Below are positions 1,650 through 5,574 of a stretch of DNA of 16,762 nucleotides, piece after piece (the first letter of the stretch is position 1; each line of letters starts with the position of its first letter). The stretch lies in the IMG/VR virus record IMGVR_UViG_2595698513_000001, positions 94,745-111,506 of that record; one strand, written 5' to 3'. A program made the translations under genes and the position numbers. Origin of the DNA: a virus. Lineage: Duplodnaviria > Heunggongvirae > Uroviricota > Caudoviricetes > Demerecviridae. The notes beneath the pieces are model-generated. The model had not been told where the DNA came from. It saw nothing but the letters and a program-made list of their open reading frames with translations, and searched no databases.

Positions 1650-2408
1650 ATGATTAAAGACCTAAAAACATATATCGAAACCGTGAACAAATCAGCAACA
1701 TCTTCTGTGTCAGGCGCAGAAGACACTAAAGTAGAGTCATTACGACAAGCTACTTTAAAAGGTAGTAAAGTTTTACCACTACTACCTCAAGTAACCTTAC
1801 CAGGAAAGTACACTGATATTCCTTTCCTTCACTTACCTAACGATACTGACGTTATCTTCTCTGTAGGCGGTATCCAGGTACAAAAAGAATTACTAGCAGC
1901 ATCTGCAACTCTAGTAGACGAGACCACAGAAGATGCTAACCCTAATATGGAAGTAGCTCTAGATAAGATTCTTACCTCTCAGGCTAGAATTAAGTTAGAG
2001 AATTATGTGGCAGATAGAATGACTACTCCTACACCAACATCAGGTGCTTCATCTAAGACTTTTGCTACTATTGTAGATACTATTAAGAAGTTCCCTTCTC
2101 AAATGCTTGCTATCGAAGGGCAGTTCCTAGCAGTGGTATCCCCAATGACATACTTTACTATTCTAGGTACTATGGATAATGCGCACCGTGAAATGGTAAA
2201 AGAAGGTATTATCAAACTATTACCTCTTTACGGTATGGATGATAGCTCACTAGTAGTACTACACACACAAGGAGTAGCCTTAGGATTTACTATTTATAGT
2301 CTAGAAAAAGATCGTGAAGCAAGTAAAGGTAAGGACGATTTAATTGTACAAGTTGCAGCAGGCTTTGGATACGATAGAAACTACATCAAACACGTAAAAC
2401 TAAGCTAA
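1650..2408 (+). CDS. Uncharacterised 252-aa protein with HK97-fold (capsid/encapsulin-like) sequence motifs, inserted in the tail module
   Basis: SD GGAGA at 1640-1644 favours ATG 1650 over 1638. The ORF fills the space between the terminator and the tape measure SD, so the CDS itself is solid. The fold call is by eye from motif order (see findings) and needs an HMM or structure check. Confidence 0.65.
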   Translation: MIKDLKTYIETVNKSATSSVSGAEDTKVESLRQATLKGSKVLPLLPQVTLPGKYTDIPFLHLPNDTDVIFSVGGIQVQKELLAASATLVDETTEDANPNMEVALDKILTSQARIKLENYVADRMTTPTPTSGASSKTFATIVDTIKKFPSQMLAIEGQFLAVVSPMTYFTILGTMDNAHREMVKEGIIKLLPLYGMDDSSLVVLHTQGVALGFTIYSLEKDREASKGKDDLIVQVAAGFGYDRNYIKHVKLS

Positions 2409-2423
2409 TAAACGGGAGTTTAT

Positions 2424-5400
2424 ATGGCTAATAAGCTAATAGAAGAACTAATCATCAAGGTGAAGCAGCAAGGTGCTAAACCTACAGAAAAAGCTATTAA
2501 GGGTGTCGGTGACGCCCTTACTGAAGCAAAAACTGCTAATAATGCTTTTAATGCTTCACTTGAACGTTCTCCAAAGATGTTCAAAAAGGTAGAAGAGGCA
2601 GCTAACAGGGCAGCTAAATCTACTAGTAAGATAAACTTTGGGTTTGATTCTAACGCCATACAACGTTCACTAGACGATGTAGTAGAGACATTGCATTCTA
2701 TGTTATCAGAAATACAGGATGTAGATACTACTATTGGTAAGATGAACAATAACATGATACACTCTTTCGATAATCTAGCTAATAGCCTAGGTGCTGACTT
2801 AGAGAGAGTAGAAGATAGTCTTATAGATGTTAGACAAGAAGCTGGTAAAACTAACGACGCGTTAGTAGGCGTAGGTAAAGGTGCCAAAAAAGCCGGGCGT
2901 GGTATGGCTAACCAGAACCGCCAAGGTAGAAACCAGGCACGTACTTTTGCTGATATAGCTAAGTTTGCTGGCCCACTCCCACTACTATATGCTAATATTG
3001 CTGCTAACGTATTCGCTCTTAGTGAAGCTTTTCGTTTAATAACCGAAGGTGAACAACTAAACCGTCTAGAGGAAGTAGGTAAAATAGTAGGTGCTCAGAT
3101 TGGACAGCCTGTTCAATTTACTGCTATGAAGATGCAGGAGCTGACTGGGCATACCCTTAACTATGGTGAAGCCTTGAGAAACGCAGCAGCTGCAGCGTCC
3201 TACGGTTTTGACAGTGAACAAATTGAACAACTAACCATGGCTGCTCGTCGTGCATCTATTGCCTTAGGTGTAGACATGCAGGATGCAATGAACCGTGTAA
3301 TTCGCGGTACGTCTAAGTTAGAAATTGAGCTTTTAGACGAACTTGGTATTACAACTAAGCTTACAACAGCATACGAGCGTTATGCTGAAAAAATAGGGGT
3401 TAGTGCTAATTCTCTTAACTCGTATCAACAACGTGCGGCTTTAGTTACTGAAATCAATGCCCAGTCTGTAGAGAAGTTTGGCGACTTAGATGAAATGCTA
3501 CGCAATGGTGCGCCTTGGGAAACGTTTGGTGCCAATATGGGTACGGCATTCCAAACGTTCTTAAAGAACCTAGCTGAAGCTAGTTCTGGTATGGCTAAGT
3601 TCTTTAATCGTTGGATGTTTGGGGAGAAAATACTATCAGAAGCAAACACCAAAGCGCAGCTATTAGGTGAAACCCTATCAAAAGCTTTTGAGCAAGATAC
3701 TAGGGCTGGTATGATTGGTGGTCTGGTACAAGTGCGAGACCTAACTAAGCAGTACCAAAAAGAACTAGAGGTAGTACTAGCTACTATACAAAATCCGGCT
3801 CCAGGAGAGAAAATAGATGACCTTACTAAAAGAGCGGGGTATCTACGCAGTGCTATAACCAGACTTAAAGTTATGACTAAGGAGTTTTCTGTTGGCTCAG
3901 TAGAAGACTTAGATAGAGCGGATACAGCGTATAGAAATCTTAGCTCTACTGTTAAAGGCACAGTTCAATCATACAACTCTAGTCTTGCTAGTATTCGTGG
4001 GCAATCTGCTTCTTACGAAAAGCTATATTCTGACATAGAGAGTATGAAAAAGGCATACTTTGAGCTTAAAGCTGCTGACCCTGCGTTTGATTCAGCAGAA
4101 GCACTAAAACGTCTAGGATTTGAATCCGAAGCGGCTCTTATTAAGTCGGAAAGGCTAGCTAAACGATATAGGGACACTAACAGAGAACTGGCTATCTTTG
4201 CAAAAACCCAAGCAGAGGCTGAAATTCAGGGACGCTGGTCTGGCAAAGACCCTAACGCAGTAAGACTTACTATTCTAAAACAGCAACGTGAGTTATATAC
4301 TGCCCTATTAGTAGACCAGAGAAGACTCGGGGCGAATGCTACGGAGCAGGCAAAGACAGAAGCTGAAATAGCAAAAATATCTCAACAAGAGTTAAATACT
4401 GAAATAGCACTTGTTAACGAGAAAAATAAACGTCTTAATACGCAGACCCAACTAACTATGGCTGGTCAGCCAGAACTTCTTATTAAGAAAGATTTACTAA
4501 CTAATGAGAGAGCCAGGTTAGCTAATTTACAGCTGATTAGAGGTACTTACCTAGAACAAGAACAGTCTCTTAATAGAATAAAGCAACTAGAAAATGAAAT
4601 ACTAGCTACTCAAACAGCTCAATCAAATCAAATGATGGAGTCTGCTTTAGGTAACTTAGCATCATTCGCTCCTGGTATTGATCAAATGACAAGCTCATTG
4701 AATGGGCTAGCAATGTCATTTAACAATATGGGTCAGTCTAGTATGACTGCTACCCAAATGGTATCTTCAGGACTAACTGCCTTCCAAGGTATGTTGTCAT
4801 ACACATCAAGTCAAGCTATTGGAGCTATTGATCAACAGATAGCTGCTGAGCAAAAACGTGACGGTAAGTCTAAAGAGTCTGTAGCTAAAATAGCAGCTCT
4901 TGAGAAGAAGAAAGTAGAACAACAGAAGAAAGTAGCTAAACAACAAATCCTTATCTCTACTGCGGTAGCGGTAATGAATGCGGCTGCTAACCCTTGGCCT
5001 GTTCCAGCTATCCCGTTAATGGCTTCAGCAGCATTAGCAGGTGGTTTAGCATACCAACAAGCATCTAGTGCAAGTGCTAACTTAGTTTCTGGGGCTACAG
5101 GAGATACTAAGGCTTCTCTAACCTTAGGTGATAGATCTAATCAGGTAGACGTATCTCAGTCAGCTACTCGTGGCGAACTTTCTTATATAAGAAATGAAGG
5201 AGGTACTGGCAGCTTACAATCATTTACTCCTAGAGCAAATGGTGGTATAGGTACTCCGGGCAACAGTATTATAGTAGGCGAAGATGGACCAGAGGTAATT
5301 ACACCACTAGAGCCAGTAAGAGCATACAGTGCTGAGGAATCAGCTGCGGGAGGTAAGGGTGGTTACACCTATGCCCCTCAATTTAATATTGATACTATGG

Positions 5401-5495
5401 ATGCTAGATCATTCTTGGAAAGGAAAGACGATATTATGGCTGCATGGAGAGATTCCGCACAAGAAAACGGCATGAATCCTGACAAGTTATATTAA
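2424..5495 (+). CDS. pb2: Tail tape measure protein (T5 pb2-like)
   Basis: SD GGGAG at 2414-2418. 1023 aa, Ala-rich and helical. N-terminus MANKLIEELIIKVKQQGA, core YGFDSEQIEQLTMAARRASIALGVDMQDAMNRVIRG, AIDQQIAAEQKRDGKS, hydrophobic segment AVAVMNAAANPWPVPAIPLMASAALAGGLA and C-terminal FTPRANGG..VGEDGPEVITP all match T5 pb2 as recalled. Confidence 0.95.
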   Translation: MANKLIEELIIKVKQQGAKPTEKAIKGVGDALTEAKTANNAFNASLERSPKMFKKVEEAANRAAKSTSKINFGFDSNAIQRSLDDVVETLHSMLSEIQDVDTTIGKMNNNMIHSFDNLANSLGADLERVEDSLIDVRQEAGKTNDALVGVGKGAKKAGRGMANQNRQGRNQARTFADIAKFAGPLPLLYANIAANVFALSEAFRLITEGEQLNRLEEVGKIVGAQIGQPVQFTAMKMQELTGHTLNYGEALRNAAAAASYGFDSEQIEQLTMAARRASIALGVDMQDAMNRVIRGTSKLEIELLDELGITTKLTTAYERYAEKIGVSANSLNSYQQRAALVTEINAQSVEKFGDLDEMLRNGAPWETFGANMGTAFQTFLKNLAEASSGMAKFFNRWMFGEKILSEANTKAQLLGETLSKAFEQDTRAGMIGGLVQVRDLTKQYQKELEVVLATIQNPAPGEKIDDLTKRAGYLRSAITRLKVMTKEFSVGSVEDLDRADTAYRNLSSTVKGTVQSYNSSLASIRGQSASYEKLYSDIESMKKAYFELKAADPAFDSAEALKRLGFESEAALIKSERLAKRYRDTNRELAIFAKTQAEAEIQGRWSGKDPNAVRLTILKQQRELYTALLVDQRRLGANATEQAKTEAEIAKISQQELNTEIALVNEKNKRLNTQTQLTMAGQPELLIKKDLLTNERARLANLQLIRGTYLEQEQSLNRIKQLENEILATQTAQSNQMMESALGNLASFAPGIDQMTSSLNGLAMSFNNMGQSSMTATQMVSSGLTAFQGMLSYTSSQAIGAIDQQIAAEQKRDGKSKESVAKIAALEKKKVEQQKKVAKQQILISTAVAVMNAAANPWPVPAIPLMASAALAGGLAYQQASSASANLVSGATGDTKASLTLGDRSNQVDVSQSATRGELSYIRNEGGTGSLQSFTPRANGGIGTPGNSIIVGEDGPEVITPLEPVRAYSAEESAAGGKGGYTYAPQFNIDTMDARSFLERKDDIMAAWRDSAQENGMNPDKLY

Positions 5496-5499
5496 GTAT

Positions 5500-5534
5500 A
5501 ATGGGCTACTGTAATGGTAGCCCATTTTTATTTT
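5500..5534 (+). terminator. Intrinsic terminator after the tape measure gene
   Basis: 10-bp stem AATGGGCTAC (5500-5509) / GTAGCCCATT (5517-5526), loop TGTAATG, then a T-rich tail. It begins 5 nt after the stop codon. Confidence 0.85.
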
Positions 5535-5546
5535 ATAAAATTTGAG

Positions 5547-5574
5547 TTGACTTTAGATTATTTACGTGTATAAT
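5547..5574 (+). promoter_or_regulatory. Sigma70-type promoter for the tail-tip genes
   Basis: -35 TTGACT (5547-5552), 16-nt spacer, perfect -10 TATAAT (5569-5574), with an AT-rich UP-like tract upstream (5524-5543). T5-like phages use host sigma70 RNA polymerase. Confidence 0.7.

Follow-up and report, generated by a model that had tools for sequence, protein, structure and literature searches.

A capsid-like gene between the tail chaperone and tape measure genes of T5-like Vibrio phages and its possible role as a minor subunit of the head

In the tail module of a T5-like Vibrio phage, a gene for a 252-residue protein (positions 1650-2408, + strand, of the 16,762-nucleotide stretch of DNA analysed here, hereafter the window) lies between the tail assembly chaperone genes and the tape measure gene. 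The protein is predicted to adopt the HK97 fold and, judged by sequence comparison, the T5-type major capsid protein is its paralogue, from which it has diverged. The reading that we favour, and in which we place moderate confidence, is that it serves as a minor capsid subunit of the head, probably the penton; its presence in the virion, its position at the vertices and its stoichiometry are what we infer. A preliminary description of the locus had not listed a penton or minor-shell role among the possible functions of the protein, yet it is the role best supported here. A possible but rather doubtful alternative is that the protein forms no part of the head and is an HK97 capsomer that has been repurposed, either as a partner of the tape measure protein in tail assembly or as a capsid mimic that weakens immunity or satellites in Vibrio hosts. 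Such a role outside the head is compatible with the position in the operon, the joint transcript, the exchange of the gene as a cassette and its restriction to Vibrio phages, all described below.

The list of ORFs and their family matches identify the window as the tail module of a T5-like Vibrio phage, whose nearest public records are VPT02 and VF16 (~92%). It begins with a baseplate tube protein of the p140 family (3-758, from a family match), followed by two tail assembly chaperone genes (755-1165 and 1176-1568, + strand; phrog_313 and phrog_3914), which form the upstream edge of the slot occupied by the capsid-like gene. The downstream edge is the tape measure gene (2424-5495, + strand), which encodes a 1023-residue protein with a TMP_N domain and is followed by genes for pb9-, pb3- and pb4-like proteins and then by fibre genes, again recognized through family matches. 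The capsid-like ORF opens at an ATG at 1650, 6 nt after a Shine-Dalgarno GGAG (1640-1643, + strand, read from the sequence), and closes with a TAA at 2406-2408, 15 nt before the tape measure ATG at 2424; the Shine-Dalgarno sequence of its own, the length and the spacing reported in the preliminary description are all verified. An in-frame ATG at 1638 would add four residues, and the orthologues match the form that starts at 1650. The product has a calculated mass of 27.5 kDa, a pI of 5.6 and no cysteine. That it is not a chance ORF follows from its match to PHROG 15693 (E 2.4e-146; labelled 'unknown function'), from the homologues in 355 phage records, and from its dN/dS of 0.06-0.21, which is like that of the capsid protein and the tape measure protein.

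The signals around the capsid-like and tape measure genes suggest how they are expressed. A terminator-like hairpin of the intrinsic type (1606-1634, the hairpin itself at 1606-1628, + strand; 10-bp stem with six G-C pairs, T6 tail, -17.7 kcal/mol) precedes the capsid-like gene, and another with a T-run (5500-5535, hairpin at 5500-5526, + strand; -16.4 kcal/mol) follows the tape measure gene, beyond which lies a sigma-70-like promoter site (5547-5574, TTGACT-16-TATAAT, 11/12 positions matching the sigma-70 consensus). No terminator-like hairpin was found between the capsid-like ORF and the tape measure gene, and no promoter-like site between the hairpin at 1606-1634 and the capsid-like ORF. 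Since hairpins with T-runs flank the pair and no promoter-like site precedes the ORF, the two genes would form one read-through unit, in agreement with the single transcript that had been proposed for them, and the hairpin at 1606-1634 probably attenuates transcription into the pair.

The AlphaFold2 model of the capsid-like protein, for which an alignment of 33 homologues was the input, has a pLDDT of 85.6 and a pTM of 0.83, and it presents the elements of the HK97 superfamily in their proper order. An N-arm (residues 11-50; 1680-1799, + strand) leads into an E-loop hairpin with the adjoining P-domain strand (residues ~50-89; 1797-1916, + strand; strands at 54-60, 72-78 and 80-89); the acidic motif DETTEDA and then the long spine helix of the P-domain (residues 100-124) occupy the stretch most like T5 pb8 (1917-2021, + strand); and a reduced A-domain (residues ~125-205; 2022-2264, + strand) is followed by C-terminal beta strands (residues 205-252; 2262-2405, + strand) that carry the conserved H205, G208 and E219. 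Across the family the consensus of the acidic motif is TDETxEDA, with T92, E94 and D95 invariant or nearly so, and E219 sits in an ExDR motif that corresponds to ERER/YERR of T5-type capsid proteins.

Structural searches with this model agree with one another. All 50 of the 50 matches listed by Foldseek against the PDB are HK97-fold capsids or encapsulins, with a probability of 1.00 and a best E value of 5e-11 (top matches 5e-11 to 7e-9, among which T5 ranks third). VIA-align gives Z scores of 12-15 across residues 3-252 to HK97 capsids and encapsulins, and the ESM Atlas leads to phage capsid families both by feature search (0.96) and by structure search (TM 0.64-0.76, full length). Among the BFVD matches the orthologues of JSF10 and VspSw_1, both labelled 'uncharacterized', come first, with capsid proteins behind them. 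The HK97-fold assignment first made from motifs is thus borne out by AlphaFold2, Foldseek, VIA-align and the ESM Atlas; the topology is as predicted, and no unrelated fold was seen. As to the motifs themselves, the proposed order is broadly correct, for the spine helix (100-124), for the strand and helix around VVSPMTYFTIL and for the C-terminal hairpin, but not for the acidic motif, which had been placed at KELLAAS and is in fact LVDETTEDA (residues 88-96). An earlier companion claim, that the E-loop is missing, was rejected: the loop is ~14 residues shorter than that of the phage's own capsid protein and is still present. Searches of Pfam and the PDB with single sequences returned nothing useful, and the capsid proteins were reached by profiles only; a Pfam scan of the window protein with E values up to 1 gave no match to PF05065 (gathering threshold 24.2 bits), to which one of 33 family members matches, at an E value of 0.081.

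Once profiles are used, the affinity of the family is to the capsid proteins of T5-like phages. An hmmsearch of the family profile against all PDB sequences produced six hits, all six of them capsid proteins, the best to T5 pb8 (PF05065; PDB 5tjt and 8zvi; E 7e-4 and 4e-3) and with DT57C also hit. Aligned by hhalign with the T5-type capsid proteins, the family reaches a probability of 91.7% (E 7.8e-7, 200 columns). In a six-frame scan of the phage's own genome the capsid protein is the only significant second hit of the family profile (E 4e-4), and in the T5 late region the capsid protein is the only significant hit (E 3.2e-6), with no second copy in T5. The capsid-like family and the T5-type capsid proteins share, collinearly, the TDETxEDA motif and spine helix, VS..Y..L, and E.(D/E)R, at ~19% identity between the protein here and either pb8 or its own capsid protein.

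That own capsid protein has 465 residues, includes a delta domain and passes PF05065 with 55.3 bits, and its gene, a neighbour of the protease gene, lies 5 kb upstream of the capsid-like one, so that the separate true capsid gene to be expected elsewhere in the genome does exist. Compared with it and its T5 counterpart, the capsid-like protein differs in having no 160-residue delta domain, in an A-domain that is shorter by ~45 residues through two deletions (~25 and ~20), and in being encoded in the tail operon whereas the T5-type capsid gene lies beside the protease. The conserved part of the family opens at the maturation cut of pb8: residues 11-22 of the capsid-like protein, TVNKSATSSVSG, line up with the opening residues of mature T5 pb8, AVNQSSSVEVSS, which follow K159 (AVNQSSS directly after the cut in T5, TVNKSATSS here). 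The protein itself starts ~10 residues ahead of the point that corresponds to this cut, where the sequences of several other members begin. The view that this is a protein without a delta domain and not the main capsid protein therefore stands. A likeness between residues 5-14 and the beginning of the delta domain in the capsid protein was also considered and rejected, as it is neither significant nor conserved in the family.

A fold so minimal, of encapsulin size and with no scaffold domain, might also build a shell of its own, either an encapsulin-like compartment or a small T=1 particle made during infection and apart from the head. Family 1 encapsulins (M. xanthus EncA, P. furiosus PfV) have the same minimal HK97 fold and the same size, and they are among the best structural matches, with Z scores of 14-15. 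We nevertheless regard a separate shell as very improbable. The neighbours of the gene are the tail chaperone and tape measure genes, with no evident cargo gene or targeting peptide; Linocin_M18 does not appear among the matches listed in the Pfam scans; and in sequence the protein is nearest to the capsid proteins of T5-type phages and not to encapsulins, the family having been seen only in T5-like phage contexts.

A shell subunit of the head proper has closer precedents. In Jabs, a siphophage of Mycobacterium abscessus, cryo-EM has located MCPp (ORF73), an uncleaved HK97-fold protein of 257 residues with a smaller axial domain, in the pentons; its gene directly follows that of the hexon protein, which has 594 residues and loses its N-terminal half, and the capsid is T=9 and disulfide-linked (bioRxiv 10.64898/2026.07.24.740622). 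Like MCPp, the protein here is a short HK97-fold paralogue of the hexon-forming capsid protein of the same genome; its axial domain is likewise reduced and its propeptide small or absent (the Jabs side of this comparison coming from the text of the paper), and it occurs beside a long, processed capsid protein. It differs from MCPp in having no cysteine, in being encoded away from the capsid gene, 5 kb downstream and within the tail operon, and in that its vertex location is inferred; the likeness drawn here is one of structure and architecture. The second precedent is the vertex protein of T4, gp24 (PDB 1yue), to which VIA-align fits the model with a Z score of 14.0 and an rmsd of 3.9 Å over 236 residues. 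It too is a paralogue of a major capsid protein, and it is a specialist of the five-fold vertex. It is also larger (the 1yue chain has 390 residues), has retained both an insertion domain and a short propeptide, and has its gene beside that of gp23, and T4 has a separate scaffold protein.

In the model we propose, the capsid-like gene would have originated as an old duplicate of a pb8-family major capsid protein gene, which diverged and lost the delta (scaffold) domain; as it has no such domain, the protein would be made already 'mature'. Late in infection it would be made, along with the tape measure protein, from the attenuated transcript that the two genes have in common, and would form its own capsomers, most likely pentamers. 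These would co-assemble with hexamers of the 465-residue capsid protein, whose delta domains would supply the scaffolding, and would fill the eleven non-portal five-fold vertices, at ~55 copies per head; the heads of T5-type phages are T=13. The place of the gene in the tail operon would then be a historical accident, the slot behind the chaperone terminator being a hot spot of recombination.

Some features of the system sit less easily with a penton. For something needed at ~55 copies, it is odd to be encoded among tail genes, downstream of a strong terminator and on a transcript common with a 3-copy protein. In T5, the model of siphophage head assembly, one capsid protein, pb8, makes hexons and pentons alike, and with 60% identity between pb8 and the Vibrio capsid protein there is no obvious need for a separate penton protein. 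Literature searches found no virion proteome, structure or mutant for the Vibrio T5-like phages, nothing relevant on a capsid paralogue near a tape measure gene, and no paper on this gene in Demerecviridae; one UniRef entry names an orthologue 'Major capsid protein', presumably by automatic annotation.

Relatives in which the gene is doubled or fused provide further insight into where the protein might reside. A T5-like contig (L008:8001-11174) carries two capsid-like copies in the slot, one of which (P0044) has 717 residues and a C-terminal Laminin_G_3/ConA-like lectin domain, and a second locus (L019:6001-7536) has tandem copies in the slot that are 33% identical to each other; duplicates of this kind, in two lineages, are not predicted by a simple penton model. 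In yet another relative (P0050), a T5-like prohead protease, 48% identical to the protease of this phage, is fused to the N-terminus of a capsid-like family member, the fused domain matching the capsid-like family (E 1.7e-11) with no match to the capsid protein. This protease::capsid-like element was seen in two runs (L010 and L011), with capsid and portal genes as its neighbours. The N-terminus points to the interior in HK97-fold shells, and in encapsulins and phi29 the C-terminus is outside, so that a protease at one end and a lectin at the other fit a subunit embedded in a shell: the lectin fusion suggests an exposed C-terminus, and the protease fusion links the family to the procapsid interior. 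A search for longer fusions with the alignment as query returned nothing, but as the known 717-residue form escaped it as well, this negative carries little weight.

Two of these loci have peculiarities of their own. At the L019 locus protease and true capsid protein are fused into one protein of 659 residues. The 6.5-kb L010 contig (231-6499) has all its genes on one strand: a T5-like capsid gene (450 residues, with a short N-domain), a 52-residue ORF and the protease::capsid-like fusion are followed by a portal gene, immediately after which comes a tape measure gene of the T5 type. This order is unlike that of any T5-like phage and could reflect a rearranged relative or a reduced, satellite-like element; a metagenome scan for further context of the contig found nothing.

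The slot itself is also present in T5, with another occupant. It had been supposed that in T5 the chaperone genes are followed directly by the tape measure gene, but T5.141 lies between them (L002:20778-21588; T5 95777-96587), encoding a 250-residue protein with CapR and treble-clef zinc finger domains that is annotated as an endonuclease. Homology of T5.141 to the capsid-like protein was considered and rejected (BLASTP E 2.4, in addition to the CapR and zinc-finger domains); T5.141 is homing-endonuclease-like and unrelated to the capsid-like protein. T5 has the same layout of (putative) terminator, slot, tape measure gene, terminator and promoter, and the terminator and promoter site at 5500-5574 of the window mirror the terminator and promoter P-G25 that separate pb2 and pb9 in T5. 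Across the family, the stretch behind the chaperone terminator and ahead of the tape measure gene thus seems to be open to insertions. Elsewhere in the genome, the gap between portal and protease (G000:C1:89046-89354) contains an ORF of ~80-100 residues where T5 has its 164-residue decoration protein pb10; it might be a pb10 remnant with the capsid-binding domain only, or it might be unrelated.

Among phages that carry the capsid-like gene its position is constant. The same slot between chaperones and tape measure gene is occupied in VF16, JSF10, V. crassostreae phages and metagenomic T5-like contigs, so that synteny was confirmed in every lineage examined. Within this fixed position the gene can, to judge from sequence comparisons, move as a cassette. 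In one pair of phages whose flanking DNA is 98-99% identical, the capsid-like alleles are only 70% identical, and the block of low identity (66-78%) begins with the capsid-like gene and ends near codon 190 of the tape measure gene. The capsid proteins of the same pair are 94% identical, and an allele swap of this depth beside so similar a capsid protein implies little co-adaptation between the two, which again is not what a penton would lead one to expect.

The fixed position, the transcript common with the tape measure gene, and the recombination event that moved the capsid-like gene and the first ~190 tape measure codons together could all be taken to mean that the protein works on the tail, for example as a capsomer-like oligomer that binds the tape measure protein in its N-terminal part, or the tail as it grows, and acts as an assembly factor, cap or ring. 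We think it quite unlikely that this is so. The joint transfer was rejected as evidence of binding, since the adjacency of the two genes is sufficient to account for it and other tape measure swaps spare the capsid-like gene, as in Dax compared with Thalassa. We know of no HK97-fold protein in any tail, and T5 builds the same tail without a capsid-like protein, every T5 tail protein having a homologue in this phage. The protease fusion, moreover, connects the family with heads. Mosaicism is a feature of the tape measure gene itself: in the region corresponding to 2600-4200 of the window, Dax differs from Thalassa and River4 in a block of 40-85% identity within genes that are otherwise 95-100% identical, and this block was swapped independently of the capsid-like gene.

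The phylogenetic distribution is sharply bounded. A tblastn search found homologues in 355 phage records, all of them from Vibrio, and a T5-type tape measure gene is present in 909 records, of which the same number, 355, are from Vibrio; among the phage records searched, no non-Vibrio T5-like phage has the capsid-like gene. A distant family member used as query again found only Vibrio phages, and 32 of 1.84 billion protein representatives match the family. The D415 lineage is as distant from this phage as T5 is (terminases 53% identical, against 59% for T5).

It is tempting to connect this restriction to one host group with a role inside the cell and outside the virion, in which the protein would mimic a capsid subunit, either as a decoy or sponge for host sensors of capsid protein or as a poison subunit directed against the capsids of satellites or co-infecting phages. 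The use of the slot as a site for accessory genes (T5.141 in T5), the exchange of the cassette between close phages and the existence of tandem paralogues would be in keeping with such a role, as would the divergence of the gene, which in comparison with D415 is the greatest of the module (23% identity, against 30-55%). Yet we consider it unlikely. The whole fold, including N-arm, E-loop and A-domain, is under purifying selection, which exceeds the need of a decoy epitope, and a mimic of a sensed protein would be expected to trigger the sensors and not to silence them. A decoy in the cytoplasm would have little use for a C-terminal lectin, the fusion to a protease suggests the procapsid instead, and no link to defence or satellites was seen.

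Whichever of these roles applies, all of the Vibrio-infecting T5-like members in the phage collection carry a second, scaffold-less capsid paralogue that until now has been annotated as 'hypothetical'. If the protein is the penton, heads with two capsid proteins, known from T4 and, since 2026, from one mycobacteriophage, would be commoner than thought, and a second capsid gene displaced into the tail operon of a T5-type phage would represent a new form of such a head. In that case the Vibrio phages, set against T5, would give a natural comparison for the evolution of vertex specialization and for the recruitment of a subunit that has no scaffold. If it acts outside the head, it would be a rare case of a capsid fold co-opted for another job. 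The lectin- and protease-fused relatives suggest that the subunit can display or deliver other domains, which may be useful for engineering. Finally, metagenome runs of oyster, mollusc and food origin, from several studies, contain DNA nearly identical to positions 1400-2700 of the window (word share 0.4-0.74).
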